Positions 10,432 to 58,875 of a stretch of DNA of 64,000 nucleotides are shown in pieces. The DNA comes from Candidatus Eiseniibacteriota bacterium. Its GTDB lineage: Bacteria > Eisenbacteria > RBG-16-71-46 > SZUA-252. Both the position numbers and the translations under genes were made by a program. Numbering within the stretch: position 1 is the stretch's first letter; each line of letters begins with the position of its first letter. The stretch is taken from contig DASUFL010000056.1 in assembly GCA_036274595.1 (NCBI GenBank), positions 28,030-92,029 on the forward strand, given 5' to 3'. The notes below the pieces were generated by a model. That model had not been told where the DNA came from, did no database searches, and worked only from the letters and a program-made list of their open reading frames with translations.

Positions 10432-10435
10432 GCCG

Positions 10436-13706: not shown

Positions 13707-13836
13707 CCCTGGAAACCCCTGTGGTGCTCTCTGGCGCGCGGCGCGGACACCCCTCGGCGCTCGACCTATCGGCAGATGGGGCGCGTTGTTTACCGCGAAC
13801 GGGTCCCGCGGTCCTCGACCGGAACCGGGGGTCTCT

Positions 13837-14595
13837 CTAACGACCGTCGATCCGTCCCAGAAGGCGGAGCAGCCCGTCGAGGATCGTGACCGGGTGCGGC
13901 GGGTGCCCGGGCACGAAGAGATCCACGGGCACGACCGACGCCGCGCCGTCGAGCACCTCCGGATGTCCCGCAAAGGGCCCGCCCGAGATCGCAGCCGCGC
14001 CCACCGCGATCACGATCTTGGGCGGCGGGATCGCATCGTAGGTCTTCTCGAGCGCGAGCCGCATGTTCCGCGTGACGGGGCCGGTGATGAGGAGCCCGTC
14101 GGCGTGGCGCGGCGACGCGACGAACTGGATGCCGAAGCGGCCGAGATCGAACACGACATTGCCGAGCGCGGCCGCTTCCAGCTCGCACCCCGCCGATCCG
14201 CCAGCGCTCACTTGGCGCAGCCTGAGCGAGCGGCCGAACAACCGCCGGGCTTCGCGGTCCAGCGCCTGGGCCAGGCGGTAGGGCTCCTCCCCGACGACGA
14301 GGTCCTCGCGTTCCCGCGCGGCCATGCGGTAGTCGGATCCGAAGCGGATCGCGCCGGTCGGGCAGGCGGCGACGCACTCCGCGCAGAACAGGCATCGGCC
14401 GAGATCGAGAGTGAGCGCGGGCTCGAGGCGGATCGCGTCGGTGGGGCACCGCTCCGCGCACGCGCGGCATCCCTCCTCGCAGCGGGACGGGTCGAGCACG
14501 GGCCGCCCGCGGAACGTCCCTGGCAGCGAGACGTCCGCCGGGAACGGAATCGTGCGGCGCCCCTGGCGGAGACGCTCGAGAAACGCTTTCAGCAT
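13837..14595 (-). CDS. Fused 2x[4Fe-4S] ferredoxin (HycF/NuoI-like) and NuoB/HycG-like small subunit with degenerate N2-cluster site
   Basis: The N-terminus carries CEEGCRACAERCP and CLFCAECVAACP, two intact CxxCxxCxxxCP motifs. The C-terminus aligns to NuoB (FDLGRFGIQFVASPRHADGLLITG…YDAIPPPKIVIAVGAAAISGG…VPVDLFVPGHPPHP). The canonical cysteines of CCxxE, GxCxxGG and GCPP are replaced (only one Cys remains, in GCELE). ATG at 14595. Confidence 0.8.
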   Translation of the reverse strand: MLKAFLERLRQGRRTIPFPADVSLPGTFRGRPVLDPSRCEEGCRACAERCPTDAIRLEPALTLDLGRCLFCAECVAACPTGAIRFGSDYRMAAREREDLVVGEEPYRLAQALDREARRLFGRSLRLRQVSAGGSAGCELEAAALGNVVFDLGRFGIQFVASPRHADGLLITGPVTRNMRLALEKTYDAIPPPKIVIAVGAAAISGGPFAGHPEVLDGAASVVPVDLFVPGHPPHPVTILDGLLRLLGRIDGR

Positions 14596-14623
14596 GCGCG
14601 GATCCTGACCGGCGCGGGATCGT

Positions 14624-16111
14624 TCACAGGTCGTGTCCGCTGTAGGAGAGGTTGAAGCTCTTGTTGCAGAGCGGGAAATCGGAGATCGGCTGGTCCCGCA
14701 TCGCCATCGCGAGCCCGGTCCAGTTGTGGAACGAGGGATCGACGATCTTGTATCGACGGAAGCGGCCTTCGCCGTCGGTGACCGCCGTGTGGCAGATCTC
14801 GCCGCGCCAGCCCTCCACGAGCGACACGGCGATGCACTCGGGCGCGAGCCTGGGCAGGGCGCCGTCCCGCCGCGCCGCTCCTTCCGGAAGCGACGAGAGG
14901 ACCCGCGCGATGAACTCGGCCGAGTGCGCAACCTCGAGCGAACGCACACCTGCCCGCGCGAACGCGTCTCCCGTGTCCCGTGTCGCGACCGGGATCGCGG
15001 CCTCCCGGTAGAGACCCTCGGGATGGTCGCGGCGAACGTCCCGATCGAGACCGGACGCGCGCGCGGCGGGCCCCACCATTCCGAGCGATTCGGCGATGTC
15101 GCGCTTGAGGACCCCGGTCTCCTCGAGCCGGCCGCGGACGGTCGCGTTGGCCCGGATCAGCTCGAAGGAGCGCGCCAGCTCCGCGGTCAGGGCCAGGACC
15201 GCGCCGGCGATGGCTCCCGTATCGGCCGGCGACAGATCGGCACCGACTCCGCCGGGACGCACCCACCCGACTCCCATCCGGCTCCCGCAGGCGAGCAGCG
15301 TGAGGTTGAGCAGATCGCCCCGGATCCGGCCGCAGTAGGAGGCGGCGGGAAGGTAGCCGATGTCCCCCGCGAGCGCACCGAAGTCACCGGCGTGGTTCGC
15401 CATGCGCTCCAGCTCGAGCGCCGCCGCCCGCAGCGCGCGTCCCCGTGCCGGAACCTCGATCCCGGCGAGCGCCTCGACCACGATGGAGTAGGCGAGCGCG
15501 TGCCCCACCGACGTGTCGCCCGCGATCGCGTCCACGAGGTGCGGGGTTCGCTTCCCCGGTCCGCCTTCGAGGGCCCGCTCGATCCCGCGGTGCTGGTAAC
15601 CGAGCGAGATCTCGAGGTGGAGCACGCGCTCCCCGTGGCACTGGAACCGGAAGTGTCCCGGCTCGATCACCCCCGCGTGCACGGGGCCGACCGCCACCTC
15701 GTGCACCTCGTCTCCCGCCACACGGAAGTACTCCATGACTCCCGGTCCCGGCCCGTTGGGGTCGTTGAAGCGGACCGGCTTGAGCCACGGATGCCCCTCA
15801 GGCAGCACCCCCCACTCCTCCGCGATCTCGCGCTCGAAGAGATGGGCCTGCGGGAACCGGGGCGTCAACGCGGGGAAGGCGCTCTCGGCCCGCGTCGACG
15901 TGAGCATGAGCTCCTCCCCTCCGGAGTGCGCCACCACGGCGATGAGGCGGAGTCCCGCGTCCCGCTCCGGCAGGCCGAAGAGCGAGACGAGCCGTGCGCC
16001 CGGAGCCGTCGTGACGGCATCGGCAAACCGGTCCGGCGTGACCCGGGGGATCGTCGCGAGCGGAGCGGTCCCGCCGTTGGCCATCGGGACGCAGGCCTGG
16101 ATGGGTGTCAT
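14624..16111 (-). CDS. NuoC-NuoD / HycE-like large subunit of a group-4-hydrogenase-related complex, lacking the NiFe cysteine ligands
   Basis: GPVHAGVIEPGHFRF…LGYQHRGIE is typical of group-4 hydrogenase and NuoD. The region equivalent to the N-terminal RxCGxC motif reads AIAGDTSVGHALAYSIVVEAL, with no Cys. The C-terminal DPCxxCxxH equivalent reads SDFPLCNKSFNLSYSGHDL. ATG at 16111 overlaps the upstream stop (ATGA). Confidence 0.8.
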   Translation of the reverse strand: MTPIQACVPMANGGTAPLATIPRVTPDRFADAVTTAPGARLVSLFGLPERDAGLRLIAVVAHSGGEELMLTSTRAESAFPALTPRFPQAHLFEREIAEEWGVLPEGHPWLKPVRFNDPNGPGPGVMEYFRVAGDEVHEVAVGPVHAGVIEPGHFRFQCHGERVLHLEISLGYQHRGIERALEGGPGKRTPHLVDAIAGDTSVGHALAYSIVVEALAGIEVPARGRALRAAALELERMANHAGDFGALAGDIGYLPAASYCGRIRGDLLNLTLLACGSRMGVGWVRPGGVGADLSPADTGAIAGAVLALTAELARSFELIRANATVRGRLEETGVLKRDIAESLGMVGPAARASGLDRDVRRDHPEGLYREAAIPVATRDTGDAFARAGVRSLEVAHSAEFIARVLSSLPEGAARRDGALPRLAPECIAVSLVEGWRGEICHTAVTDGEGRFRRYKIVDPSFHNWTGLAMAMRDQPISDFPLCNKSFNLSYSGHDL

Positions 16112-34857: not shown

Positions 34858-37128
34858 ATGCTCCGCACGAACGCCGAGCCGCATCCCGCGCGCCCGCCGT
34901 CCTCCCCGTCCGCGCGCTGGGGCGAGTTCTCGCTGCTCGAGCGCCTCGGATCTGGCACGTTCGGGGAAGTGTGGAGGGCCTGGGATCCGGCGCTGCGGCG
35001 CGAGATCGCCGTGAAATTCCTCCGCGAGCGAGCCGATGCGACGGGCGCGGTCCACCAGGCGGCTCTCCTCGACGAGGCGCGCGCCCTCGCGCGGATACGG
35101 CACCCCGGAGTGGCGGCGGTGTACGGCGTGGCGGAGTTCGACGGAAGAGCCGGGCTGTGGATGGAGTACCTGCGAGGGCCCAGTCTCGCCTCCGTGCTCG
35201 AGGAGAGAGGGGCGATGCCGTGGCGCGACGTGATTCGCGTAGGCTGCGAGCTCTGCTCCGCGCTCGAGGCCCTCCAGCACGCAGGTCTGGTCCACCGGGA
35301 CATCAAGCCCGCCAACGTCGTGATGGAGTCCGACGGGCGGGCGGTGCTCGCCGACTTCGGACTGGGCATGCGCCGCCGGCTCCTCGAGCCGAACGAGATG
35401 AAGCAGGGCTGGGGAACGCCGCTCTTCATGGCGCCGAGCCTGCTTCGTGGCGGTGCCCCCACGTTCCGGACGGATCTCTATGCCGTGGGTGTGACGCTAC
35501 TGTGGGCCCTCACCGGCCGCGCCCCGTTCGAGTCGCGCACCCTTCCGGATCTCCAGATCGAATCGGCCCGGGGACCGACCATCGTGCTTCCCAACTTGAA
35601 CCGGGACGCGCCGATGGCCCTCGTCGACCTGATCGGGAAGAGCCTCGAGGAGTCCGACCCCGCGCGGCTCACGGCGTCGAAGATGCGCGCCGGCCTCGAG
35701 TCGCTTCAGAGCCCCAAGCAGGCCCTGGATCTCGCCGTCCGGCCCTCGATCGCCGTGCTGCCGTTCCTGAACCGGAGCGCGGACGAATCGACCGACTACT
35801 TCTCGGACGGACTCGCCGACGAGCTGGTGATGGTTCTCTCCAAGATCCAGGGGCTCCGCGTCATCGCTCGGACCGCCTCGTTCCAGTTCAAGGGCAAGAC
35901 CGAGGATCTCGCGGTGATCGGCGCCAAGCTGAACGTCGCGACCCTGCTCGAGGGAAGCGTCGTCAAGCAGGGCAGCCGGCTCCGCGTGTCGGTTCGCCTG
36001 GTCAAGATCCCGGAGGGCGACTCGCTCTGGTCCGAGAGCTACGACCGGACGTGGGACGACGTCTTCGCGGTACAGGACGACATCGCGCAGCGCGTTGTCA
36101 CGGAGCTGCGCGCCCGGCTCGTGGGCGCCGCCCTGGATCCGGACCGTGCCAAGGCGGAGATTGCCGAGGCGGTCCGCGGCCGCGGCGAGGATCCCGAAGT
36201 CCACCGCCTCCTGATGCGGGCGAGATACCACCTCGATCGCGTGACGTCCGACGACACGGCCCAGGCGCTCGAGTTCGTGGCACAGGCGATGGAGCGCGAT
36301 GCAGCCCATCCAGCGTTGTGGTGCGAGCTGTGCCGTGCGCGCAGCCTGCAGATGAACTTCGGATGGATCCCCATTGCCGAGGGGACCGTCTTGGCGCGCG
36401 AGGCCATCGACCGGGCGCTCGAGCTGGATCCGGAGCTGTCCGAAGCGCACGGGCTCCTGGGCTGGCTGCTCATGCACTACGACCGGAACTGGGCGGCGGC
36501 CGAGGCCTCCTTTCTGAGGGCGCTCGATCTGGATCCGGAGTCGGCCGGCAATCTGCGGAGAGCCGGGACTCTGGCCATGTGCCTCGATCGCCCGCATCAA
36601 GCGATCGATTACTACGACCGGTCCCTGATCGGGGATCCATTGAGCACCGCGGCGTACAACAATCTCGGCTTTTCCCACTACATCGCCGGGCATTACGAGG
36701 AGGCCGTGCGAGCCATTCAGAAGTCCATCGAGCTCGCGCCCCAGCGGGTGGGAGCGAGGGCGCTCCTGGCATTCACGCTCCGGGCGATGGGGCGTGGTGA
36801 GGAGGCGATGGCAGCGGCAAACGAGGAGACCATGGAGGTCTACCGAATTTGGAGCCTCGCCATCATCCACCACCACGAGGGCCGGCACGACGAGTCGAGC
36901 CGGATGCTCGCGCTGCTCGAGGGGAAGTACGCCGACGACGCCGCCTACCAGATCGCGGAAGTCCACGCCGCCCGGGGCGCGGTGGATCCCGCATTCGAGT
37001 GGCTCGAGCGCGCGTACCGGCAGCACGACGGCGGGCTCGCCGGCATGAAAGCGAGCGTCAATTTCCGCCCGATCCACTCCGATCCGAGATGGACCACGTT
37101 CCTGCTCAAGGTGGGGTTCGACGCCTAG
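34858..37128 (+). CDS. Ser/Thr protein kinase with central TolB-N-like domain and C-terminal TPR repeats (paralog of 10960..13236)
   Basis: GSGTFGEVWRA, HRDIKPAN, DFG and the TolB-N-like block PSIAVLPFLNRSADESTDYFSDGLADELVMVLSKIQGLRVIART…LWSESYDRTWDD. TPR-like C-terminus. Confidence 0.85.
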   Translation: MLRTNAEPHPARPPSSPSARWGEFSLLERLGSGTFGEVWRAWDPALRREIAVKFLRERADATGAVHQAALLDEARALARIRHPGVAAVYGVAEFDGRAGLWMEYLRGPSLASVLEERGAMPWRDVIRVGCELCSALEALQHAGLVHRDIKPANVVMESDGRAVLADFGLGMRRRLLEPNEMKQGWGTPLFMAPSLLRGGAPTFRTDLYAVGVTLLWALTGRAPFESRTLPDLQIESARGPTIVLPNLNRDAPMALVDLIGKSLEESDPARLTASKMRAGLESLQSPKQALDLAVRPSIAVLPFLNRSADESTDYFSDGLADELVMVLSKIQGLRVIARTASFQFKGKTEDLAVIGAKLNVATLLEGSVVKQGSRLRVSVRLVKIPEGDSLWSESYDRTWDDVFAVQDDIAQRVVTELRARLVGAALDPDRAKAEIAEAVRGRGEDPEVHRLLMRARYHLDRVTSDDTAQALEFVAQAMERDAAHPALWCELCRARSLQMNFGWIPIAEGTVLAREAIDRALELDPELSEAHGLLGWLLMHYDRNWAAAEASFLRALDLDPESAGNLRRAGTLAMCLDRPHQAIDYYDRSLIGDPLSTAAYNNLGFSHYIAGHYEEAVRAIQKSIELAPQRVGARALLAFTLRAMGRGEEAMAAANEETMEVYRIWSLAIIHHHEGRHDESSRMLALLEGKYADDAAYQIAEVHAARGAVDPAFEWLERAYRQHDGGLAGMKASVNFRPIHSDPRWTTFLLKVGFDA

Positions 37129-48864: not shown

Positions 48865-50520
48865 TTGGCGGAATCCAAGAAGAAGGCCATGGCGGCGCCC
48901 AAGCTCGGCACGCCCACCGGGATGACGACCACGGCCCGGAGCCGCTGGCACACGCTGCCGCCCGAGCTCTTGAACCAGGCGTGCAAGCGGGTGCGCATCA
49001 TGATCGCCTCGGTCGGGTGCCTCTGGCTCATCGCCTTCATCATGGACATTGTGATCGCGCGCGTCCTCAAGCACCATCACATGGGCGACATGATCATGAT
49101 GGACCGGTTCCCCGCGAACGTGATCGGATGGACCGGCCTCCTGTCCGCGATCGTCGTGCTGTTCGTGATCCGGCGCTTCAAGTGGGCGCCCCGCACGCTC
49201 ATCAACATCGGGGTCGTGTACCAGATCTTCACGGCCGCCCTCGTCGCGCTCCTGACCAACCTGAATCCGCACTTCGGCGAGGGACGGATCTCCTGGCTCT
49301 GCATGATCATCCTGATCCAGCCCGCGGTCGTTCCCACGCCGCCGATCAAGACGCTCGTCGCATCCCTGATCATCGCGACCATGGATCCGATCGCGGTGTG
49401 GATCGCCCACCTTCGGGGCGCGCCCATTCCCGCTGACGCGTTCATCCTCACGTGGGCGTTCCTCCCCAACTACATCTGCGTGGGTCTCGCGATGCTCCCG
49501 TCCGCGGTCATCATGGGGCTGAGCCGGCAGGTGAACGAGGCGCGGGAGCTGGGGAGCTATCTCCTGGGCGATCTGATCGGAAAGGGAGGCATGGGGGAGG
49601 TCTACCACGCCCGGCATCGCATGCTGGCGCGTCCCGCGGCCATCAAGCTGATCCGCCCCGAGTCGCTCGGCGCGGCCGACATGAAAGCCGCGCAGGCCAT
49701 GATCCAGCGCTTCCGCCGCGAGGCGCAGGCCGCGGCCTCGCTCAAGTCGCCGCACACGATCGTGCTCTACGACTTCGGCGTGACGGACGATGGGGTGTTC
49801 TACTACGTCATGGAGCTCCTCGATGGGTTCGACCTGGAGACCCTGGTGAAGCGGTTCGGGCCGGTCTCGCCGGAGCGCGCCATCCATCTCCTGAGTCACA
49901 CCTGTCAGTCGCTCGCGGAGGCGCACGCGCGCGGGCTCGTCCACCGCGACGTGAAGCCCTCGAACATCTTCACGTGCCGCCTGGGACTCCAGGTGGACTA
50001 CGCGAAGGTGCTCGACTTCGGACTCGTGAAGGTGGCGCGTGACGCCGAGATGGGCGCGGGCACGGTGCTCATGACCAATCCCGACGTCACGACGGGAACA
50101 CCCGCGTTCATGGCTCCGGAGATGGCGCTGGGCGACGCGGTCGACCACCGGGCCGACATCTACGCGCTCGGCTGCGTCGGCTACTGGCTCCTCACGGGCC
50201 GGCTCGTGTTCGAGGCCGATACTCCGGTCAAGATGATGCTCCAGCACATCCAGTCCACGCCCAAGCGGCCCTCGGAGCTGAGCGAGATCGCCATCCCGGC
50301 CGAGCTGGAGCGGGCGCTCCTCCGCTGTCTCGCCAAGAAGCCCGAGGATCGCCCGCAGACGGCGGACGAGCTCTACCGTCTCCTCGACTCCGTGCCGATC
50401 GCGGAGCGCTGGACGAAGGAGAGAGCCTCCTCCTGGTGGGACGTCCACAGTCCCGCGTCCGCGCCCATCACGAAGCTCCACGAGGAAACGCCGATCGCCA
50501 CGATGCACGTGGTGAAGTAG
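48865..50520 (+). CDS. Membrane-anchored Ser/Thr protein kinase (N-terminal multi-TM domain, C-terminal kinase)
   Basis: The N-terminal ~230 aa have about 6 TM helices. The kinase domain is GKGGMGEVYHARH…AIK…HRDVKPSNIF…DFG…APE. Confidence 0.8.
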   Translation: MAESKKKAMAAPKLGTPTGMTTTARSRWHTLPPELLNQACKRVRIMIASVGCLWLIAFIMDIVIARVLKHHHMGDMIMMDRFPANVIGWTGLLSAIVVLFVIRRFKWAPRTLINIGVVYQIFTAALVALLTNLNPHFGEGRISWLCMIILIQPAVVPTPPIKTLVASLIIATMDPIAVWIAHLRGAPIPADAFILTWAFLPNYICVGLAMLPSAVIMGLSRQVNEARELGSYLLGDLIGKGGMGEVYHARHRMLARPAAIKLIRPESLGAADMKAAQAMIQRFRREAQAAASLKSPHTIVLYDFGVTDDGVFYYVMELLDGFDLETLVKRFGPVSPERAIHLLSHTCQSLAEAHARGLVHRDVKPSNIFTCRLGLQVDYAKVLDFGLVKVARDAEMGAGTVLMTNPDVTTGTPAFMAPEMALGDAVDHRADIYALGCVGYWLLTGRLVFEADTPVKMMLQHIQSTPKRPSELSEIAIPAELERALLRCLAKKPEDRPQTADELYRLLDSVPIAERWTKERASSWWDVHSPASAPITKLHEETPIATMHVVK

Positions 50521-50532
50521 GGCGGCCCGCTC

Positions 50533-52266
50533 CTACCGGAGTAGCTCGTAGGCGGCGTCGTCTCCGAAGCGCGCGCGTGGAAGGAGCCGCTTCTGGAGGG
50601 CGAGCGATCTCTCGAGGTCCTCCCGTCGCTCGGGCGGGACATCTCCGAAATGGACGATCAGCAGCTTTCCGCCCATTCGACCCAGCGCATCGAGTGCCGG
50701 ATCGTTCGGGAAGTCCTGCATCGCGAGACGAAACGATCGGTACCTCGGCGAGATGAACCCACTCGATCCGTCGAGTCGCGGCTGGCCGTGCACCAGAACG
50801 AGCAATTGACGGTACGAATCGACCGCGGTCTCGTCGCTGTCCTGGCGCGGCACGGGTAGCTCCAAGAAGGGAGTCCCCGCAGGCTGGGTCGCGAGCCACG
50901 CGTACATCGCGGGGATCCTGTCCAGCTTCGGAATCGAAGCCGTCGGGATCGGGCGGATCCAGGAATCCAGGAACAGGAAGACGATCGCGAGCGCCACGAG
51001 CCATGCGGCGAGTCTCGCGTTTCGCTTTCGGATCCAGCTCCAGCTGTGCCCCGCGACCACGGCCAGGCCGAGAGCGACCAGAACGGACAGTCGGGCCGGG
51101 GCCCGCATGCTGGCGAACCCCGGAAGCGTCGAGTAGAGGAGAGCGTAGGGGAGAGGAATCCACAGGAGGCGTCCCGCGACGTGGAGAACGGGTCCCAAGG
51201 ACAGGACGAGGCCGATGGCGGACAAGAACAGCATGGCCCCGGGATCGCCCAAGAGGTTCAGCCTCGCGCGTAGCGAGGCCCAGGCCGATGCCTGCCGGTG
51301 GCCTACCGCCCGATCCGGCGGACGCTTCAAGCCTGCGACGAGCCAGATCGCCGTGAGTAGAACGACGGCCGTGCCGGGCCAATAGGACTGTTCTCCAGAG
51401 GGCGTCCCGAGTCTCGCCGCCGCCGGAGAGCTTGGGTTCCATCGCACATAGTCCGTGAGGTCGGCCGAGTACAGAGCGGTCTCGCCGAGCGACCGTCTGA
51501 ACTCGGGCAGCGCGTGCCGCTGCTCGATGTAGGGCCACGTGACCGGCACGATGGCCGCCAGGGCGGCCAGGAGCAATCCCACCCAGAGGAGGCGGTGCTC
51601 CCGTGGCGGTGTCTGCCCCCGCACGAGGGCCAGGTAGGAACCGACGACGACGACGGCAATCGCGAGATAGTAGGCGTAATACCACCCGAAGTAGACCTGG
51701 GCCGTGAGCGTGCCCACGACGCCGACCGCATCGCGGACCTTCCTTCGGCGCAGATAGCGGACCAGGAACAGGAGTCCAAGCGGGAGGAACTGGGTCTGGA
51801 GCTGATTGAGGAGATCGATTTGCGCGAGTCGGTAGGAGCTGAACGCGAACCAGGCCCCGCTCAGAACCGCCCCAGCTCGAGGGATTCCGAGAAGTCGGGC
51901 CAGCCGGTAGGTGGCCCACGCCGACAGGACGAACGAGGCCAGCAGCAGTCCGTTGTACGCCGCGGGCAATGAATTCCACCCTCGGAGAAGCGGCCAAGCC
52001 AGGATCGTTTCACCCGTCATGTGGTCCATGTACGTCAGCGTTCGGGGTTCCGGGAAGAAGATCGGCGGATGGAACAGTCGCGACGGATTCGTCGCGAGCG
52101 CCATCCGGTCCCACCCGATGAGAAACGTCTGCAGGAAGGGATCGAATTGGGTCTTGGACAGGGGAATGGACGACGAATAGCGGGCGACCACCGGCCATAG
52201 CCAGACGATGGTGATCAGGGCGTACGCGGGCAGCACGAACCAGGAGCGGTACCGGTCCCGGCTCAT
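50533..52266 (-). CDS. Polytopic membrane protein, possible GT-C-fold glycosyltransferase-like
   Basis: 577 aa with 10 or more TM helices. ATG at 52266 overlaps the upstream stop (ATGA). No family assigned with certainty. Confidence 0.55.
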   Translation of the reverse strand: MSRDRYRSWFVLPAYALITIVWLWPVVARYSSSIPLSKTQFDPFLQTFLIGWDRMALATNPSRLFHPPIFFPEPRTLTYMDHMTGETILAWPLLRGWNSLPAAYNGLLLASFVLSAWATYRLARLLGIPRAGAVLSGAWFAFSSYRLAQIDLLNQLQTQFLPLGLLFLVRYLRRRKVRDAVGVVGTLTAQVYFGWYYAYYLAIAVVVVGSYLALVRGQTPPREHRLLWVGLLLAALAAIVPVTWPYIEQRHALPEFRRSLGETALYSADLTDYVRWNPSSPAAARLGTPSGEQSYWPGTAVVLLTAIWLVAGLKRPPDRAVGHRQASAWASLRARLNLLGDPGAMLFLSAIGLVLSLGPVLHVAGRLLWIPLPYALLYSTLPGFASMRAPARLSVLVALGLAVVAGHSWSWIRKRNARLAAWLVALAIVFLFLDSWIRPIPTASIPKLDRIPAMYAWLATQPAGTPFLELPVPRQDSDETAVDSYRQLLVLVHGQPRLDGSSGFISPRYRSFRLAMQDFPNDPALDALGRMGGKLLIVHFGDVPPERREDLERSLALQKRLLPRARFGDDAAYELLR

Positions 52267-54188
52267 GGATCGGTCCGTTGCTTCACCCGCCACGTCTCGA
52301 GCTTCGCGAGCACCTCGGCGCTCTCCCTGTCTCCCGGCTTCACCTCCTGGAGCCGGCGCGCCATCTCCTTCGCCTGCGCGAAGTACTCGCTCCCGTAGAA
52401 CATCGCCATCCAGTAGCGGAGCGCCTCGGGATCGCGCGGTGAGATGCCAAACACGCGGTACGCCTGCCCATCGAGCGCGGGGGAGCGCGACGGCTGCGCG
52501 ATCACGCGGGCGATGGCGTCGATCGCGATGCCGTGAGGCAGAGGCGGCGCCGATCGGAGAATCCGCTCTGCTCCCGTCGAGTCCCCGCGCGCGTAGAGCA
52601 CCATGGCGGCGAGCCTCAGGTCGTGGGAGCGGACGAGGAGATGGGGCTCGGTGTTCGCGAGACGAAGGAGGATGCGGACCGCGCGATCGGGGTCGCCCGT
52701 GGCCGCGACGCCGCGCGCGTAGGTCCCGATCACGACCCGGATCTCGGGCATCCGGGGGGGTGCGCCGCTCGACCGGACCGAGGGGATGTCGGGATCGATC
52801 TGAATCAGGTCCCGATCCTCCGTGATGCGGAGCAGGATCTCGTGCGGCGCGCCCGCCATGCGCCGCTCCGGATCGAGCACCTGGATCGTCGGGTCGTTGT
52901 ACCAGATCCGCGCCGCCTGTCCGTCGACCAGGGTTCCGTGAATTCCCGCCATGCCGCTGGCCGCCACCGAGACGAGGACCTGGGTGCCATGGGGCAGCGT
53001 CGGGTAGAGCTCCCGAAATTTCCGCTCCAGGCCGCGCGTCGCGCGCTCGCCGTCGATGAAGCTCCGCTCGGTGAGGAGGGCGCCGCTCGGATCGTGCACG
53101 CCGCGGCTCCAGAGCCCGAGCGCCAGGTAGACGGCGAGCGCGAACGCGGACACCGCGGCCTCGGTCCGCGCGAGAACGATGCCCAGCGCGATCGAGGTGC
53201 CCAGAGCGGGAATGCAGACGAAGTACGCGGCCCACCGGCGGACCACGAGCGACGGAAGCAGGAGCGCCGGAATCGTGAGGAGCGCCCCGAGCAGGACCGC
53301 GCGTCGCGGGGTGAGCGCGCCTGTGGGGCCGTGTCCCGCCCGGCGCGTCAGGACGAGGGCCAGGACGCCCAGGACCCAGGCGGCGGCCGAATAGGCGATC
53401 CGGTCCGCGGGCCATGGCGTCCCGAGCCCCGTCGCCGGAGCGTTGAAGAGGGCGCGCCAGTAGCCCCTCCACTCGAGAAACACCATCGTCTGGTTCTGGA
53501 ATCCGACGTAGCTCTTCGGCTCCTCGTTCAACTGGCCGGTCACGAGAAGGCGGATGCCGGGATGGAGCGCGGCCCATGCAACCGCGACCGCGCCGAACGC
53601 GAGGAGCGGAACGAGCACGCGCGCCGGCTTCCGGCCGAGAAGGAGATCCCAGAGCACGAGCACGGGCAAAGCCGCGCCGATCGCTTCCTTGGAGAGGAGC
53701 GCCATCAGCATCGCGATCACGGCCCATGCGGTGTGTCCCCGGTCGTGGAGGTCGAGCGCCACGAGGAAGAAGAGGATCGCCGCGAGGTCCTGTGCGCCGC
53801 TCGCCCAGCCCACGAGGCTGGCGGCGGGCGCGATGCCGGCGAAGAGGAGCCCGGCGAGGAGCCCAGCGCGCGTGCCCGCATGCCGCGCGATGACGATCGC
53901 GAGGAGCCAGGCCGACAAAGCGAGCATCGCCAGGTTCGCGAGATGCGACGCGATCGCTCCCGCGTCACCGGCAAAGGCGAGCGGGAGGAAGTAGAGCCCC
54001 TGGGTGAGCGGCCGGTAGAACGCGGCGCCCTGTACGTACTCGAGGCACGCGGCAAGGCCGCGCTGCGCCCGCGTGAGGAAGTAGTAGTCGTCCCAGAAGT
54101 AGCCGAGCCGGAGCATCGGGAGCGCGAGCGCGATCGCCGCGAGTGGCGGCGCGAGGAGAGTCAAGCGCCGCGCGGCGCCGCCGCTCAT
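52263..54188 (-). CDS. Polytopic membrane protein with C-terminal TPR-like domain, GT-C (PMT/ArnT-like) glycosyltransferase candidate
   Basis: The first extracytoplasmic loop carries LRLGYFWDDYYFLT, a DD/DE-type motif characteristic of GT-C enzymes. About 10 TM helices, then a helical repeat tail (…ALRYWMAMFYGSEYFAQAKEMARRL…). ATG at 54188 overlaps the upstream stop (ATGA). Confidence 0.55.
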   Translation of the reverse strand: MSGGAARRLTLLAPPLAAIALALPMLRLGYFWDDYYFLTRAQRGLAACLEYVQGAAFYRPLTQGLYFLPLAFAGDAGAIASHLANLAMLALSAWLLAIVIARHAGTRAGLLAGLLFAGIAPAASLVGWASGAQDLAAILFFLVALDLHDRGHTAWAVIAMLMALLSKEAIGAALPVLVLWDLLLGRKPARVLVPLLAFGAVAVAWAALHPGIRLLVTGQLNEEPKSYVGFQNQTMVFLEWRGYWRALFNAPATGLGTPWPADRIAYSAAAWVLGVLALVLTRRAGHGPTGALTPRRAVLLGALLTIPALLLPSLVVRRWAAYFVCIPALGTSIALGIVLARTEAAVSAFALAVYLALGLWSRGVHDPSGALLTERSFIDGERATRGLERKFRELYPTLPHGTQVLVSVAASGMAGIHGTLVDGQAARIWYNDPTIQVLDPERRMAGAPHEILLRITEDRDLIQIDPDIPSVRSSGAPPRMPEIRVVIGTYARGVAATGDPDRAVRILLRLANTEPHLLVRSHDLRLAAMVLYARGDSTGAERILRSAPPLPHGIAIDAIARVIAQPSRSPALDGQAYRVFGISPRDPEALRYWMAMFYGSEYFAQAKEMARRLQEVKPGDRESAEVLAKLETWRVKQRTDP

Positions 54189-56425
54189 TCCCGCTTTTCC
54201 TCTCGCCGGATCTCGTCGAGCCGGATCACGATCGACGCGCTCGAGTCGAGAAGGTCGTTCAAGACCTGGTCGGGTGCGCGCGCTGGACCTGCCCGGCGGG
54301 GACGGTTGTCCTCGAGGTAGGGCCAGAGTGCCTTTCGAATGTCCGGCGGAAGGGTCGTCTCCAGGTATTCGAGCGCCGTGCCGCGGAGGAGCGGATCGGT
54401 CGCGTGGAGCCCTTTGAACGCGATCTTGAGCGGCTGCCTCGGCAGCGCGAGCGCGAGGAGCGTGAACACGTGTTCGAGGCTCCGGTTCGCTCTGTCCTTG
54501 AGCACCTCGTCCATGACCGGAGACCACGAGTCGTCGTCCATCCGGTCGAGCACCTTCCGGCTCTCCCAGACACCGGATCCCGCCAGCACCTCGCGCAGCA
54601 CGGCCGCGAAGGCCTCGTCCGGCGGGACCGTGAGCGTGGCCTTGAGCTCCGCCAGGTGGGCGAGTCCGCGCCCGCACCGATAGCGCACCTCGAATCGCGG
54701 ATCGCGGAGCCCTCCCAGGAGCGCCTGCACGGCGCGCGGATCTTGAAACGTCGCGAGAACGAGCGGGATGCGCCGGCGGATCGTGAACTCGACCTCGGGA
54801 TCGAGGAGCGAGTCCTCGAGCGCGCCGATGGCATCGGGGGTCGCGCGGCGCAGCGCCGAGAGCGCGTCGGACGCCACCTCGTCCCAGGCGAGCAGCGGGA
54901 TGACGTGTGTCGCGAGCGTCCCGTCGATCCGCACCGCGGCCAGCGCGCGGCGCACGCGCGGCACGTCGCGCGAATGGAGATCGCGGATGCGAGCCAGCTC
55001 GACCGCGGCCTCGCCGTCCGCCTCGACGCGGAGGGACGCCGTCGAGCCCGGCGCCACTGCGTCCGACCTGGGCACTTGGAGGATCTGGCTCAGGGCGAGA
55101 GGGCCCAGCGTCTGGAGCACCGTGGAGCGGGTGGTCGCATCCTGCACGTCTTGGATGTCGAGCTGAACGGCTCGCGACACGAGACCCCGCGCGAGCGCGC
55201 TCACGTAGCCCCGGTGGAGCCCCCACGCGAGGAAGAATCCGGCCGTGGAGATCGCCGAGGCCATGAAGAGGAGCACCGTGCCCTGCCGTCCCTCGAGGCC
55301 GACGAGGAGGACCGCCTGCGCGAGCCCGGCGGCGATGATGTCCCCCGCGCGCGCGGTCCCGACGTCGGCGAGCGACTTGATGGCCCGCTTCTCCCGCTGC
55401 GGGACAGGGGTGAAGAGCACCTCGTAGCCCGCGCGGAAGAGCGAGTTCGAGAGCACCGACTCGACCGCGCGGGCCGCGATGGTCGGGCCGAGCCCCGGGA
55501 TCGCGGCCGCCGTCGCCGAGGCGATCGCCACGCCTCCGGGAAGCGCCGCCGCGGATCGCGCCGGGCCGAGGCGCTCGAGCACCCAGCGGCTGAGCGACGT
55601 CTGCACCAGCACCGTCACGAGCGAGGTGGCCGTGTAGAAGTAGGCGAAGAACCGGAGCAGACTCCCCTGTTCGCTCATGGCCAAGGACGCCCGGCCCTTG
55701 AGCACGAGATCGATCAGCCCCTCGCTGATCGTGGCGAGGAGGACGAGGTTGATGAGCCCGCGGATGTAGGGCGTCCTCGCCACCACCGCGTGCGGATTCA
55801 AGTGCTCCTCGCGGGGCGTCGGGGTCTCCGGCCCGCGCACGCCCGTGATGGGGTGCGATGTCGACGCGACGCGCGCGATGGCGGCGGCGCAGACGAAGTG
55901 GAACGCCGCGAGGATCGGGATCATGGTGGTGAGCGGGAGCGCGCCCGCGATCTGCGACGCCACGAATCCGCCCAGGAGCCCGCCCACGGTCGCCGCGGCG
56001 GTGATGCGGCCTAGCTGGCGCTTGGCGGAGCGCGGATCGAACCGCTCGTTCATGAACTGCCAGAAGCCGGATACGAGGAGGGCGCCTAGGCAGCCGTAGT
56101 GCGCGTAGAGAAGGATCGACGCGGGCCCTGGGGCGACGAACGACACGCCCCACTCGACGAGCATCAAGAGACCGCTCACGAGAAACGCGGTCGGGATCAG
56201 GCGCTCCGGCCCCCACGCGCTGAGCGCCCGCGTCGACCCGTACGCCAGTGCGAGCGACGCGGCCGACGTCACCGCCACCATCGCGGGAAGGTACCGAACC
56301 GGATACATGGACAGGAAGAACGCGTCCCGGGTCGCCTTGGCGCCGACCTGGTAGGCGATCATGGCCACGGCCGCGACGCTCGCGGCGAGGAGGAACGAAC
56401 GGGTATCGCGCGGGGCGGAGGTCAA
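54185..56425 (-). CDS. Transporter-like 12-TM domain (MFS/TLC-like) fused to C-terminal HEAT-repeat domain
   Basis: N-terminal …RDAFFLSMYP… plus about 12 TM helices. The C-terminal ~300 aa have PBS-lyase-type HEAT repeats (…LLGGLRDPRFEVRYRCGRGLAHL…LHATDPLLRGTALEYLE…). The start is uncertain: TTG at 56425 or ATG at 56362. Confidence 0.6.
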   Translation of the reverse strand: MTSAPRDTRSFLLAASVAAVAMIAYQVGAKATRDAFFLSMYPVRYLPAMVAVTSAASLALAYGSTRALSAWGPERLIPTAFLVSGLLMLVEWGVSFVAPGPASILLYAHYGCLGALLVSGFWQFMNERFDPRSAKRQLGRITAAATVGGLLGGFVASQIAGALPLTTMIPILAAFHFVCAAAIARVASTSHPITGVRGPETPTPREEHLNPHAVVARTPYIRGLINLVLLATISEGLIDLVLKGRASLAMSEQGSLLRFFAYFYTATSLVTVLVQTSLSRWVLERLGPARSAAALPGGVAIASATAAAIPGLGPTIAARAVESVLSNSLFRAGYEVLFTPVPQREKRAIKSLADVGTARAGDIIAAGLAQAVLLVGLEGRQGTVLLFMASAISTAGFFLAWGLHRGYVSALARGLVSRAVQLDIQDVQDATTRSTVLQTLGPLALSQILQVPRSDAVAPGSTASLRVEADGEAAVELARIRDLHSRDVPRVRRALAAVRIDGTLATHVIPLLAWDEVASDALSALRRATPDAIGALEDSLLDPEVEFTIRRRIPLVLATFQDPRAVQALLGGLRDPRFEVRYRCGRGLAHLAELKATLTVPPDEAFAAVLREVLAGSGVWESRKVLDRMDDDSWSPVMDEVLKDRANRSLEHVFTLLALALPRQPLKIAFKGLHATDPLLRGTALEYLETTLPPDIRKALWPYLEDNRPRRAGPARAPDQVLNDLLDSSASIVIRLDEIRREEKRE

Positions 56426-56430
56426 GGCGT

Positions 56431-56458
56431 GAGAATAACCCGGCGAAGCAGCGCCGGG
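56431..56458 (-). terminator. Hairpin CCCGGCG-CTGCTT-CGCCGGG followed by TTATTCTC between the anti-sigma gene and the transporter-HEAT gene
   Basis: A 7-bp stem with a 6-nt loop and a U-rich tail on the minus strand, 20 nt downstream of the anti-sigma stop. Confidence 0.5.
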
Positions 56459-56477
56459 CGGAACGACCTTGGTGAGG

Positions 56478-56906
56478 CTACGGCCCGCGCCGGCCGGTGA
56501 GCGCGAGGATCAGGGCGCGCTCGGCCGCGCGCCAGGTGCGCCACAACAGGGCGACGATGAGGAGGGCGCTCATCACGATCAGCGTGAGGAGAGGGGCGGG
56601 GTCGAGATCTCGGGCGAGAGTCGCGGCCCCATTCCACACCCACGCGTTCACGAGAGCCGCGCCGCCGAAAAGCCGTTCCGGCCACCACGACTTGAGCAGC
56701 GCGAGGACGATGGCGGCGGTGAGCCCGACCGCGGCGACCGGATCGCTCGCCGCGAGCAGCCAGGTCGGGACGGGGCGCGCCTCCTCCACGGGGGTCGCGG
56801 CGACGCGGGCCATCACCCGGTCCGCGAAGTGGGTCGGCGCCGAGATCGGCTCCGGCTTCACGCGGAGCACCTCCTCCGCCCAGCGCTCGAGATCCCTATC
56901 GTCCAC
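56478..56906 (-). CDS. Putative anti-sigma factor (single-pass membrane)
   Basis: The gene overlaps the 3' end of the ECF sigma gene by 11 nt. The 142-aa product has TM helices (LTAAIVLALL…LLTLIVMSALLIVALLW). The call rests on context. Confidence 0.5.
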   Translation of the reverse strand: MDDRDLERWAEEVLRVKPEPISAPTHFADRVMARVAATPVEEARPVPTWLLAASDPVAAVGLTAAIVLALLKSWWPERLFGGAALVNAWVWNGAATLARDLDPAPLLTLIVMSALLIVALLWRTWRAAERALILALTGRRGP

Positions 56907-57495
56907 GGACAGCTCCCATCCGCTGGTCCCGCTCGTACGCCTCGCGAAGCGCCGCGCGGCCGCGGCTCATGTGGGTCTTCACCGTGTTCTCCGGCATGTC
57001 GAGCATCTGCGCGATCTCCGCGACCGGCCGGTCTTCATAGTAGAACAGCGTGAGCGCCGCGCGCTGCGCCGGCGGAAGCGTGGCCAGGAGCCGGTCCATC
57101 CGCCGCGCCAGGCTCGCGTCGGAGGTCGTGGCGGAAGGCTCCTCCTCGGGGTCCTCGACGGCGACCTCGCGCGCCCGGCGCGCTTTCAAGGTCGCCGCCC
57201 GGTCCAGCGCCAGCCGCACCAGAATGCGGTAGAGCCAGGTCATGAACGAGGCCTCGCCCCGGTACTCGCCGATGCCGCGCCACGCCCGGACGAACGCGTC
57301 CTGTGCGATCTCCTCGGCGTCGGACCGGGAGCGGACCATCCGGTATGCGAGCGCATAGGCGCGATCCTTGTAGCGCTCGACGAGCGCCCGGTAGGACCGC
57401 GCGTCGCCCGCTCGGCATCGCGCGATCCAGTCCGCTTCTTCGGGGGAGGTCTCCACCCCCGCCTTGGACGGGGCGGTCCCCGGCTCCGGTTTCAT
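56896..57495 (-). CDS. ECF-subfamily RNA polymerase sigma-70 factor
   Basis: Region 2 is YRALVERYKDRAYALAYRMVRSRSDAEEIAQDAFVRAWRG. Region 4 is LPPAQRAALTLFYYEDRPVAEIAQMLDMPENTVKTHMSRGRAALRE. ATG at 57495. Confidence 0.8.
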   Translation of the reverse strand: MKPEPGTAPSKAGVETSPEEADWIARCRAGDARSYRALVERYKDRAYALAYRMVRSRSDAEEIAQDAFVRAWRGIGEYRGEASFMTWLYRILVRLALDRAATLKARRAREVAVEDPEEEPSATTSDASLARRMDRLLATLPPAQRAALTLFYYEDRPVAEIAQMLDMPENTVKTHMSRGRAALREAYERDQRMGAVRGR

Positions 57496-57592
57496 GAAAC
57501 CCGCCAGGGGGGTCGCGCCCTCCAAGTCATCGAGCGCCGGAAGGGCGGCCCGCGGCCGCCCCGGCGGATCCTTCAACCCAAGGAGCGAAGCC

Positions 57593-58027
57593 ATGCGCGA
57601 CGTGTACCCTCTGATGTCCCTGATCATCCCGATCATCGCGGTGGCGGGCGGCATCACCCTGGCCATCGTACGAATCTTCACCCAGGCGCGCCTCGAGGAA
57701 CTCGCCCGCAAGGAGCGTATCGCGGCCATCGAGCGGGGTGTCGATCCGGAGAAGCTGCAACCCGTCCCCGCCTCGGACCATTACGGCTTGGGAAGCAGCC
57801 GGATCCGCCGCGCACACGGACTTCTCATCGGGGGACTCATCCTGCTGGCCATCGGCCTCGGTATGAGCGTGGTCTTCGCGTTCGTCGACCCGGAGAAGTC
57901 GAACTGGATCGCCGGCGTCGTGCCTGGGTTCGTGGGCATCGCACTTCTCATCTCGAGCCGCGTCGTGTGGCCGAAGGAAGGAGAGCGCGCCGGTGCGGCC
58001 GGCCGGCCGGGCGAAACCCGTTACTGA
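57593..58027 (+). CDS. Small integral membrane protein (hypothetical), divergent from the ECF sigma gene
   Basis: SD AGGAG lies 7 nt upstream of the ATG at 57593. Two hydrophobic helices (MSLIIPIIAVAGGITLAIV; GLLIGGLILLAIGLGMSVVFAF) flank a charged helix. Confidence 0.5.
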   Translation: MRDVYPLMSLIIPIIAVAGGITLAIVRIFTQARLEELARKERIAAIERGVDPEKLQPVPASDHYGLGSSRIRRAHGLLIGGLILLAIGLGMSVVFAFVDPEKSNWIAGVVPGFVGIALLISSRVVWPKEGERAGAAGRPGETRY

Positions 58028-58875
58028 ACCTCGGCGAGCCGCCGCCTCAAGTCGGCGCTGAGCGTGCCCTCGAAGACTTCCTCCACCGGGCCGGTCATGA
58101 TGATCGAGAGGTCTTGCGCGACCTCGACCTCCAGCTGGCCCCCCTCCATCACCACCGTCACGGCATTTCCGACCAAGCCGCGGTCGAAGCAGGCCGCGGC
58201 CACGGCGCACGCGCTCGTGCCCGACGCGAGCGTGTGCCCCGCGCCCCGCTCCCATACGAGCGCGCGCACGCGGCGGCGGGACTCGATCTCGGCGAGCTGG
58301 ACGTTGATGCGCGCGGGGAACTGCGCGTGGTTCTCGACCTGTGGCCCGAGCTCGAAGAGCTGCTTCCGCGTGTGGGGCTCCCCAAAGATCACGCAGTGGG
58401 GATTACCGACCGAGACGACGGTGACGTCGAGCTTCCGGCTCCGCACCGGCAGCGCCGTGACGGCGCGGTCGATCGAGGCCCGGCCCATCTCGAGCCGCAC
58501 CGCTTCCACGCGTCCCTCGGCCCGATAGACCTCGGTGCGCACCGGGCCCACGACGGTCTCGATGGAGAACACGGACTCGTCGGTGTAGCCGTGATCGCTC
58601 AGGAACTTCGCCACGATGCGGAGCCCGTTGCCGCTTCGCTCCGCGAGCGAGCCGTCGGGATTCCAGATGCGCACGGCGAAGCGGTCGTCGGCCGCCGTCA
58701 CCTCGAGGATGCCGTCGGAGCCGAGGCCCAGGTGGCGATGGCAGAGGAGGCGCACGCGCTCGGGTGTGAGGGTGATTCCGAGCCGCGCGGCGTCCATGAC
58801 GACGTAATCGTTGCCAAGGCCGTGCGACTTCACGAAATCGAGATCGAGCAAGTCATCCTCCCTGGCCGGAACCAT
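58021..58875 (-). CDS. dapF: Diaminopimelate epimerase
   Basis: The motifs are HGLGNDYVV, …SGNG… and …GNPHCVIF…, with two active-site Cys regions. The likely true start is TTG at 58851 (SD GGAGGA upstream, giving MLDLDFVKSHGLGNDY); the ATG at 58875 would overlap the upstream gene by 23 nt. Confidence 0.85.
   Translation of the reverse strand: MVPAREDDLLDLDFVKSHGLGNDYVVMDAARLGITLTPERVRLLCHRHLGLGSDGILEVTAADDRFAVRIWNPDGSLAERSGNGLRIVAKFLSDHGYTDESVFSIETVVGPVRTEVYRAEGRVEAVRLEMGRASIDRAVTALPVRSRKLDVTVVSVGNPHCVIFGEPHTRKQLFELGPQVENHAQFPARINVQLAEIESRRRVRALVWERGAGHTLASGTSACAVAAACFDRGLVGNAVTVVMEGGQLEVEVAQDLSIIMTGPVEEVFEGTLSADLRRRLAEVQ

Follow-up and report, generated by a model that had tools for sequence, protein, structure and literature searches.

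An ECF sigma factor pair beside an NTT-HEAT fusion and two GT-C-fold proteins in a soil Eisenbacteria genome

Genes at the locus

GC3 frame analysis and the translations place five genes on the minus strand at 50533-57495 of the window (the whole 64-kb stretch of soil Eisenbacteria DNA that was analysed), the last three joined by ATGA overlaps at both junctions, as the first-pass annotation had described. In the direction of reading these are an ECF sigma gene (56896-57495 as first read), an anti-sigma-like membrane ORF (56478-56906, GTG start, 142 aa), an NTT(TLC)-HEAT fusion (g1; 54185-56425, TTG start, 746 aa) and two genes for GT-C-fold proteins (g2, 52263-54188, 641 aa; g3, 50533-52266, 577 aa). 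Two plus-strand genes flank the array. A polytopic Ser/Thr kinase gene (48865..50520; Pkinase, E 5e-39) converges on g3, leaving 12 bp between the two stop codons, and a gene for a small DUF6249 membrane protein (57593..58027; PF19762, E 1.8e-9), whose ATG at 57593 is preceded by the ribosome-binding site AAGGAG, diverges from the sigma gene. The individual parts are of known kinds; their arrangement is lineage-specific.

The ECF type of the sigma gene is borne out by Pfam matches to Sigma70_r2 (E 1e-17) and r4_2 (E 1e-18) and by a TIGR02937 (sigma70-ECF) score of 105.7 bits, where the cut-off is 42.9. The next ORF shares 11 nt with the end of the sigma gene and encodes two or three hydrophobic segments; a Pfam search with its product gave no match. 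An ortholog of 185 aa at the related locus L087 shares DLERW, FA(D/N)RVMA, ASDPV(A/T)AVGLT and W(R)xWRAAERALIL with it and also carries HAAGCARC, which is absent from the window protein, and BLASTP of the window protein against that of L019 gives an E value of 0.001. Judged by these likenesses, the product is a homolog, in shortened form, of an anti-sigma factor with a zinc motif (H-x3-C-x2-C), corresponding in both position and sequence to the zinc-motif proteins of its relatives, and the overlapping membrane anti-sigma gene had been recognised correctly.

The transporter-HEAT fusion read into g1 also stands. Residues 1-400 show about 11 hydrophobic peaks and HEAT_2 follows; the protein divides into an NTT(TLC)-like transporter (approximately residues 1-430) and cytoplasmic HEAT repeats (approximately 470-746). 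The g1 family profile matches chloroplast NTT1 (9j3j; E 2e-11), another ADP,ATP carrier (9j3n; E 2e-9) and alphaRep HEAT proteins (E 1.5e-21), and PF03219, PF07690 and PF13646 are found on many g1 homologs; the window protein itself scores under the TLC cut-off (17.2 versus 21 bits). These profile matches make g1 a member of the nucleotide-transporter (NTT) family fused to HEAT repeats. At least 584 GTDB species carry it. A 2017 paper describes NTT-HEAT fusions as widespread among free-living bacteria and of uncharacterised function (Major, Embley and Williams; PMC5381601). With an N-terminal NTT/TLC-like domain and C-terminal HEAT repeats (PF13646), g1 shares their architecture and is a candidate member of that paper's monophyletic clade.

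The sigma promoter and the gap before g1

An ECF-type promoter of the sigma operon is found at 57466..57494 on the minus strand, with TGAAAC at 57494-57489, an 18-nt spacer and CGTCC at 57470-57466. The 64-kb window contains one strict match to TGAAAC-N18-CGTC, against a chance expectation of 0.03, and the motif recurs with identical 29-nt geometry 5' of the orthologous sigma gene at L001-L004, L014 and L019. Across these seven loci, the window included, sigma identity goes down to 47-53%, the spacer sequence varies and the distance from CGTC to the start codon is always 10 nt. The ATG at 57495, from which the gene was first read, lies within the conserved -35 element; at L014 and L019 this position holds no start codon, and the gene opens 10 nt after CGTC. 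Because the promoter overlaps ATG 57495, the start is probably GTG 57456 (56896..57456, 186 aa): the gene is retained and its original start is not. With a promoter so near the start codon, the mRNA would probably be leaderless or nearly so.

Comparison with SigW/SigM-type ECF systems shows both likenesses and differences. The sigma2 plus sigma4 architecture, the autoregulatory promoter (-35 TGAAAC, -10 CGTC) and the membrane anti-sigma gene overlapping downstream (as with ZAS anti-sigma factors) are all alike; the Bacillus SigW consensus is TGAAAC-N16-CGTA. The window differs in its 18-nt spacer, in the start codon close behind CGTC with its probably leaderless transcript and in the palindrome that two divergent promoters form with their -35 elements, whereas the anti-sigma differs from ZAS partners in having lost H-x3-C-x2-C, a motif that its relatives keep. 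The ECF sigma and the shortened membrane anti-sigma would form an autoregulated unit acting through TGAAAC-N18-CGTC.

The second arm of the palindrome belongs to a promoter-like mirror-image site (57495..57524, plus strand; -35 TGAAAC, -10 CCTCCA), a putative element facing the divergent DUF6249 gene, which lies beside sigma at L001-L004, L014, L019, L087 and L169. The two -35 elements make a perfect palindrome (CCGGTTTCA/TGAAACCGG). At L014 and L019 the -35 halves are 20 nt apart, with CCGTCCAAGG on both arms, and the divergent arm of L004 carries CCGTCTA; in the window clade a C replaces the key G of CGTC in the mirror site.

The anti-sigma-like gene and g1 are separated by 52 nt. The hairpin that had been annotated here as a terminator or attenuator, GCCCGGCG-CUGCUU-CGCCGGGU (56438..56459, minus strand), is present, with an MFE of -18.4 kcal/mol (z = -1.5; 18 of 200 shuffles fold equally well). 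It is not called by a terminator scan, its stem has uncompensated changes in L002 and L003, and as a terminator it is weak and unconvincing. A conserved motif, GGGTTATTCTCACGCC (56426..56440, minus strand), abuts the TTG start of g1 and contains TATTCT, a TAnnnT -10-like hexamer, 6 nt 5' of the start codon; the window, L001-L003, L086, L087 and L004 all retain CCGGGTTAnnCTnACnnC(T/G)TGA, the remaining spacer not being alignable. No Shine-Dalgarno sequence precedes g1. A motif scan of the 64-kb window found no ECF promoter before g1, g2 or g3, and the search proposed for positions 57495 and 56425 was thus successful for sigma, where the promoter overlaps the proposed start, and negative for g1. 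The conserved TAnnnT element suggests that g1 also has a promoter of its own. Hairpin and -10-like element both stand between the anti-sigma-like gene and g1, a placement that speaks against read-through.

The order sigma/anti-sigma/g1 is kept at L001-L004, L014, L019, L087 and L169, with g1 identities of 49-94%. Since g1 always follows the pair in this one Eisenbacteria lineage, gene order points to probable read-through of sigma-promoter transcripts into g1, to which transcription from its own promoter might be added. At L014 and L019 a hydrolase gene lies between the anti-sigma gene and g1 and overlaps each of them, which indicates an operon structure there. A possible, though unlikely, alternative is that the ECF pair and g1-g3 make up two units, the sigma operon stopping at the hairpin, g1-g3 being transcribed leaderless from the housekeeping-type TATTCT and their adjacency having no regulatory meaning. 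The hairpin is indeed there, but it is statistically unremarkable and has no proper U-tract; CCGGGTTAnnCTnAC stands directly before the g1 start in seven loci without a Shine-Dalgarno sequence, but no -35 element is recognisable and TTG, a poor start codon for leaderless mRNA, would be unusual. The lack of an ECF motif upstream of g1 fits separate units, whereas the persistence of the gene order to 49% g1 identity and the chaining of the L014 and L019 genes through overlapping stop and start codons do not.

Conserved neighbours of g1

The published NTT-HEAT fusions were linked to a cyclic-nucleotide-binding domain (PMC5381601). The genes linked to g1 differ: across at least four phyla they encode a six-TM Ser/Thr kinase, a second, plain TLC transporter, a protein resembling Omp85 and an unknown one some 550 aa long, and in Eisenbacteria the ECF pair is linked to it as well. 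Among the 44 loci of at least 15 kb, the kinase ortholog and TLC2 each neighbour g1 in 28, X552 in 21, the Omp85-like gene in 18, sigma in four, g2 in one and g3 in none. In the kinase, six TM helices at the N-terminus precede an intact Hanks domain, with the VAIK-type lysine, HRD, DFG and APE conserved. Of 58 informative GTDB loci, 39 have a full-length ortholog (at least 40% identity) no more than 10 kb from g1, the two genes directly adjoining in 15, and 19 have none at that distance; a reciprocal scan also found kinase paralogs away from g1. Deep conservation as a partner of g1 belongs to the kinase (48865-50520), and not to the glycosyltransferases. Because the HEAT and kinase domains are both cytoplasmic, the two could interact there.

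The trio g1-g2-g3 is found together only in close relatives (the window, L086 and L169). It is a recent lineage-specific assembly and not a conserved system. In this sub-lineage, g2 and g3 occupy the interval that elsewhere holds the TLC, Omp85-like and unknown genes, and would have become translationally coupled to g1. We consider it reasonably likely that the locus is composite, and reject one dedicated system as the main reading; the NTT-HEAT/kinase neighbourhood is a better lead than the trio.

The dedicated system proposed in the first-pass annotation, in which the ECF pair would control all three genes, g1 moving a substrate or product and g2 and g3 modifying the same glycan or lipid, is improbable. 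It would account for five genes on the same strand with only those 52 nt before g1, an ECF promoter upstream, a GT-C fold common to g2 and g3, and ATGA overlaps (g1/g2, g2/g3) that are kept in L086 and L087. However, g2 is absent beside g1 in 79 of 80 GTDB loci and g3 in all 80, and g3 is dispensable even in the close relatives L002 and L087, which have g1-g2. Co-occurrence of the trio with an ECF pair does not extend to distant homologs: those of g2 (55% identity or less, sometimes tandem paralogs) and of g3 (about 50%) lie in unrelated neighbourhoods without g1 or an ECF gene. The role of g1 as a glycan or lipid exporter fares no better, as it is of a nucleotide-transporter family, whereas GT-C enzymes use lipid-linked and not nucleotide-linked donors; we know of no NTT-family member that exports a glycan or lipid.

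Two GT-C-fold proteins

The composite reading leaves g2 and g3 as predicted enzymes, both with a GT-C fold and a conserved acidic first-loop motif. In g2, about 11 TM helices are followed by a beta-rich domain and, at the C-terminus, by a TPR domain; YFWDDYYFL comes directly after TM1 and D33 and D34 are invariant in 30 homologs, confirming the first-loop DD motif and TPR tail. A GT-C protein unrelated to g2, g3 has about 10-11 TM helices, in agreement with the 10 or more first counted, a C-terminal alpha/beta domain and a first-loop acid, D42, that is invariant in 49 homologs. GT-C clan matches among their relatives are weak and neither window protein passes a curated GT-C family threshold; all three trio proteins fall below curated family thresholds, and the original statement that none confidently matches a characterised enzyme holds. 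That g2 and/or g3 are non-catalytic scaffold or substrate-binding subunits in the manner of PIG-U, which with GAB1 is among the GT-C-fold matches and is, like GAB1, not a known transferase, is very improbable, since the failure to pass curated GT thresholds is set against the invariant first-loop acids and a retained g2 KE motif matching the phosphate-/metal-binding motif of TMTCs.

Each protein would most likely move a sugar from a polyprenyl-phosphate-sugar to a periplasmic acceptor; that of g2 is probably a protein, which the TPR domain would recognise in the manner of TMTC- or PMT-type O-mannosyltransferases. The g2 motifs DD, (F/S)YRP and KE(T) match TMTC motifs M1, M2 (partly) and M4 as listed in PMC7801869, where full-length prokaryotic homologs are also noted. 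Like TMTC1-4 and PMT_2-type proteins, g2 has a GT-C membrane domain and then C-terminal TPRs, with DD and then YRP in the first loop and KE(T) in one further on, but the beta-rich domain between membrane part and TPRs sets it apart, as do the absence of the H-K of SHKSYRP, of the DW motif, of an exact ERxxY and of a PF08409 match; PMT_2 gave no match to window g2 at E 0.1 or better. Although g3 has only 8-16% identity to any solved enzyme and carries no WWDxG-type or other family-specific motif, it shares the GT-C membrane fold and the conserved Asp after TM1 with ArnT, PglB/STT3 and AftD-type enzymes. In the DUF2079/PTPS_related comparison, weak DUF2079 scores appear in nine of 49 g3 relatives and not in window g3. 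The C-terminal periplasmic alpha/beta domain of g3 resembles the C-terminal domain of AglB.

The locus and its predicted ECF sigma promoter

Third-position GC (GC3) profiles separated five real minus-strand genes from many spurious open reading frames in the window, which has a G+C content of ∼69%. Together with the translations, they place an ECF sigma gene at 56896 to ∼57456 (57495 as first given), a small membrane ORF of anti-sigma type at 56478–56906 and three genes, g1, g2 and g3, at 54185–56425, 52263–54188 and 50533–52266, respectively. The sigma gene and the ORF that follows it share 11 nt, and there are ATGA overlaps at both the g1/g2 and g2/g3 junctions. The first-pass annotation had therefore described the minus-strand genes and their ATGA joins accurately. 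The plus-strand neighbours are an ABC-F ATPase gene and the gene for a 551-aa Ser/Thr kinase (48865–50520), which is convergent with g3; a gene for a DUF6249 membrane protein is divergent from the sigma gene, with DapF, a CMD-family gene and GT2 farther out. We rejected a reading of the flanks as a polysaccharide locus: the genes there have housekeeping roles (DapF, CMD, GT2, ABC-F, MarR, CLC, aldehyde dehydrogenase and 2-oxoglutarate dehydrogenase). The proteins of the window are identical or near-identical to proteins of Candidatus Eisenbacteria metagenome-assembled genomes. The stop codons of g3 and the kinase gene (50520–50533) are 12 bp apart, with no terminator-like structure detected between them, and ∼14 kb off (34858–37128, plus strand) there is a separate Ser/Thr kinase gene whose product ends in a TPR domain.

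Compared with homologous loci from other genomes and contigs (L001–L169), the locus reads as a probably autoregulated ECF unit, a gene for a transporter of the NTT–HEAT type with conserved partners that include the kinase, and two genes for proteins of GT-C fold that occupy this position in this lineage only. All the parts are of known kinds. The best lead is the NTT–HEAT/kinase neighbourhood, which is largely outside what was originally claimed.

The sigma factor has σ2 and σ4 domains only (Sigma70_r2, E = 1.3e-17; Sigma70_r4_2, E = 1e-18), domain searches gave no match for region 1 or region 3, and at 105.7 bits the protein passes the ECF superfamily model TIGR02937 (cut-off 42.9); its original assignment as an ECF sigma factor is thus borne out. 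Alignment of the regions upstream of orthologous sigma genes revealed a conserved motif, TGAAACCGG-N-CCCGTCCAAGG, and in the window the predicted ECF promoter TGAAAC-N18-CGTCC (57466–57494) is the sole strict match in the 64 kb, against an expectation of 0.03. The motif is kept in six orthologous loci (L001–L004, L014 and L019) with identical 29-nt geometry and a variable spacer sequence. With this predicted AAC-containing −35 element and CGT-containing −10 element upstream of its own gene, the sigma factor fits the autoregulatory pattern of ECF (group 4). The ATG at 57495, earlier proposed as the start of the sigma gene, falls within the −35 element, L014 and L019 have no start codon at the equivalent position, and an ATG or GTG is found exactly 10 nt past CGTC in all lineages compared. 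The start is therefore probably GTG 57456. A start codon 10 nt past CGTC would also make the sigma transcript leaderless or nearly so. The precisely defined promoter thus corrects the sigma start and predicts a local regulon of the sigma operon plus the DUF6249 gene.

The −35 element of the sigma promoter forms one arm of a perfect palindrome, CCGGTTTCA|TGAAACCGG, and the opposite arm begins a mirror-image promoter-like site oriented toward DUF6249; the two divergent sites together span 57466–57524. In L014 and L019 the halves of the palindrome are 20 nt apart and CCGTCCAAGG is found on both arms. In the clade of the window the divergent −10 is CCTCCA, i.e. CCTC instead of CGTC. Between the divergent site and the DUF6249 ribosome-binding site, presumably in the 5′ UTR of the DUF6249 gene, there is a long inverted repeat rich in G+C, CGCCGG-GGGCGGCC-GCG-GGCCGCCC-TT-CCGGCG (57535–57566).

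The product of the small membrane ORF (142 aa) is a putative cognate anti-sigma factor, judging from the 11-nt overlap with the sigma gene and from clear homology to a 185-aa protein in the same position in L087 (L087 6318–6875). It has no match in Pfam. The H-x3-C-x2-C zinc anti-sigma (ZAS) motif is carried by the orthologues in L087 (as HAAGCARC), L004, L014 and L019 but is absent from the 142-aa protein: the homologue of the window clade has an internal deletion of ∼40 aa and the zinc motif is gone. The motif is retained in the orthologues of loci at a g1 identity of 74% and below.

The spacer upstream of g1

The 52-nt spacer upstream of g1 holds an 8-bp hairpin (56438–56459) that had been read as a terminator or attenuator. 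Its fold stability is unremarkable for the base composition (z = −1.5), its stem has uncompensated changes in close relatives and its tail is UUAUUCUC, with no U-tract to follow the stem as in an intrinsic terminator. The hairpin was not called in a scan of 50000–58200 for σ70 promoters and terminators, which reported a single terminator-like site, unrelated to it, and no promoter. The results argue against a terminator. The best-conserved feature of the gap is CCGGGTTAnnCTnAC (56426–56440; also in L086, L087 and L004). It stops 6 nt short of the g1 start codon, TTG or GTG, and there is no Shine–Dalgarno sequence. It could be a −10 element of TAnnnT type for a leaderless g1 transcript; TTG is unusual as a leaderless start codon. 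The TTG start itself stands, since the NCBI annotation likewise gives a product of 746 aa and TM1 requires residues before the internal Met; the alternative of a start at the internal ATG is not borne out.

A check for an ECF-type promoter upstream of both 57495 and 56425 had been proposed. The predicted sigma promoter is at 57466–57494, but neither a strict nor a relaxed search found an ECF motif upstream of g1, g2 or g3, which leaves read-through as the one route by which an ECF factor could control them. Read-through from the sigma promoter into the g1 operon is plausible, and in this lineage likely, because the order sigma/anti-sigma/g1 is kept in loci with only 49–58% g1 identity and because an extra hydrolase gene in L014 and L019 is tied to both of its neighbours by overlapping codons. 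This gene (L014 8790–9944; L019 ∼8790–9944), between the anti-sigma gene and g1 and overlapping both, encodes an α/β-hydrolase (Hydrolase_4) with an N-terminal TM helix.

Two GT-C-fold proteins and the history of the trio

When the g2 and g3 profiles were searched against the sequences of solved structures, nothing but TPR proteins or noise came up for the membrane domains, so that a fold comparison was needed. The g2 protein has a GT-C membrane fold, with a β-rich domain and a C-terminal TPR domain as extra parts beyond the membrane domain. Asp33 and Asp34, an acidic motif directly past TM1 in the first extracytoplasmic loop, are invariant in an alignment of 30 sequences, and F-Y-R-P later in the first loop, Lys167-Glu168 and His209 are invariant or nearly so. 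The earlier reading of g2 as a GT-C protein, made from its DD motif, agrees with the fold and with the invariant Asp pair. TMTC O-mannosyltransferases have the motifs M1 DD, M2 SHKSYRP, M4 KE(T/Q)xxT, M5 DW in EL4 and M7 ERxxY before TM10 (PMC7801869, Table 4). The M1 DD is present in g2, whereas Phe57-Tyr58-Arg59-Pro60 matches the YRP part of M2 only. At M4, Lys167-Glu168 is invariant and is followed by Thr in most relatives but by Ala in the window, and the second Thr is absent. Inspection of the alignment showed no conserved DW for M5, and the nearest stretch to ERxxY is RRWAAY (Trp319 and Tyr322 invariant), which has other spacing. An exhaustive profile search gave 252 clusters at 50% identity with E of 1e-30 or better, and g2 thus belongs to a modest but real family.

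The g3 protein also has a GT-C membrane fold with an acidic first-loop residue (Asp42, invariant), and its C-terminal α/β domain resembles the C-terminal domain of AglB. Judging from the number of helices and from where the positive charges fall, both proteins may be N-in, C-out, which would leave their C-terminal domains in the periplasm; for g2, with a count of 11 TM helices, this would place the TPR domain in the periplasm. The possibility that g2 and g3 are paralogues was dropped, as hhalign found no relation between their membrane domains.

Family models gave a divided answer. PMT_2 is weakly matched by 11 of 30 g2 relatives at E ≤ 0.1 (best 1.3e-5) and DUF2079 by nine of 49 g3 relatives (best 2e-5), and some g3 relatives have a precomputed PF19830 annotation; but the g2 of the window reaches the cut-off of no Pfam family in the GT-C clan, having TPR matches only, and its g3 has no match to DUF2079 or DUF6311 at the Pfam threshold. 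The TLC threshold is also not passed by g1. The initial view holds: no assignment to a characterized enzyme can be made for any of the three proteins. We found nothing relevant in the literature on Eisenbacteria glycosyltransferases. As first framed, the finding enlarges what is annotated in an uncultured phylum by a further ECF operon and a pair of divergent families of GT-C fold, which is helpful but no surprise.

The three genes had been proposed to form a dedicated ECF-controlled system that modifies or exports an envelope glycan or lipid. A scan in which each GTDB species was represented by one genome yielded at least 584 relatives of g1, and among the best 80 loci, which were examined, g2 adjoins g1 in L002 only and g3 in none. 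Protein look-ups added the full trio in L086 and L169, joined by the same 4-nt overlaps as in the window, and g1–g2 only in L087. Even in close relatives g3 is patchy: it is absent from L002 (89% g1 identity; 12232–15819) and L087 (74%; 9231–12888), to be compared with 50533–52266 of the window, and present in L086 (73%) and L169 (∼80%). Homologues of g2 at 42–55% identity (L081–L083 and L088) and of g3 at ∼50% (L084 and L085) are in unrelated housekeeping surroundings. A dedicated ECF-controlled three-gene system, with the trio in close relatives only, is unsupported by the comparative evidence. Among the loci compared, two GT-C-fold genes occupy this position only in this lineage, and the gene order and ATGA coupling show what appears to be a recent insertion and not an ancient functional unit. 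L081 (2087–6366) carries tandem g2 paralogues (51 and 32% identity to g2) in surroundings that bear no relation to g1 or to the ECF pair.

The NTT–HEAT protein and its neighbourhood

The description of g1 as a fusion of a transporter with HEAT repeats is upheld by profile searches. A profile of 45 homologues matches the solved chloroplast transporter NTT1 (PDB entry 9j3j, E = 2.2e-11), another ADP,ATP carrier (9j3n, E = 2e-9) and HEAT-type αRep proteins (E = 1.5e-21). There are eleven hydrophobic peaks in residues 1–400, close to the 12 TM helices expected, and the C-terminal part scores 28.3 bits against the HEAT_2 threshold of 27.7. The g1 of the window does not reach the curated NTT/TLC thresholds (PF03219, 17.2 bits, cut-off 21; TIGR00769, 16.1 bits, cut-off 387); PF03219 is carried by many relatives at 48–60% identity, and many homologues carry PF03219, PF07690 and PF13646. 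A survey of 2017 reported this NTT–HEAT architecture to be monophyletic and common among free-living bacteria, and functionally uncharacterized (PMC5381601). What g1 has in common with that clade (Major et al., 2017) is, by architecture only, an NTT domain with C-terminal HEAT repeats. The literature found on NTT–HEAT proteins consisted of the 2017 survey and two papers citing it, with no later functional work.

The N-terminal part of the convergent kinase comprises six TM helices, and its catalytic motifs are intact. Of 58 informative loci, 39 encode a full-length orthologue no more than 10 kb from g1, and in 15 the two genes are immediate neighbours. In the loci of at least 15 kb (n = 44), a plain TLC transporter of ∼490 aa is present in 28, a protein of ∼550 aa (X552) with no match in Pfam, NCBIfam or PDB sequences in 21, and an Omp85-like protein in 18. 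The neighbourhood, which sometimes also includes a metallophosphoesterase, spans at least four phyla (L004–L080 and L089–L123). In other Eisenbacteria (L004, L019, L024 and L034) genes of the second TLC, X552 and Omp85-like types fill the interval from g1 to the kinase, which in the sub-lineage of the window is held by g2 with or without g3. A reciprocal metagenome scan starting from the kinase found g1, the second TLC transporter, X552 and Omp85-like neighbours in many contigs, and also kinase copies without them. Searches of the literature found nothing that links HEAT, translocase and kinase, and no description of the NTT–HEAT neighbourhood.

It is conceivable, although we consider it rather unlikely, that the NTT–HEAT protein, the six-TM Hanks kinase, the plain TLC transporter, the Omp85-like protein and the ∼550-aa protein form one conserved multi-phylum module (Eisenbacteria, Gemmatimonadota, Acidobacteriota, Myxococcota and others), absent from the searched literature, that became ECF-linked in one Eisenbacteria lineage and was partly replaced by the two GT-C genes in the sub-lineage of the window. 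A plausible role for such a module would be phosphorylation-controlled nucleotide uptake or sensing across the envelope. If it is real, the NTT–HEAT family, uncharacterized since 2017, would for the first time have a functional setting; the reproducible neighbourhood itself supplies concrete partners for a widespread family without known function.

Gemmatimonadota loci (L020, L026, L035 and others) have at least two six-TM kinase paralogues near g1, which in L035 are an adjacent convergent pair. A second set of g1 genes at ∼55% identity (L009, L010, L011, L013 and L022; four labelled Eisenbacteria, L011 labelled Binatia) has no sigma gene upstream and has a different, generic Ser/Thr kinase gene divergent ∼100–200 bp upstream of g1, which suggests either two g1 lineages or repeated linkage to kinases.
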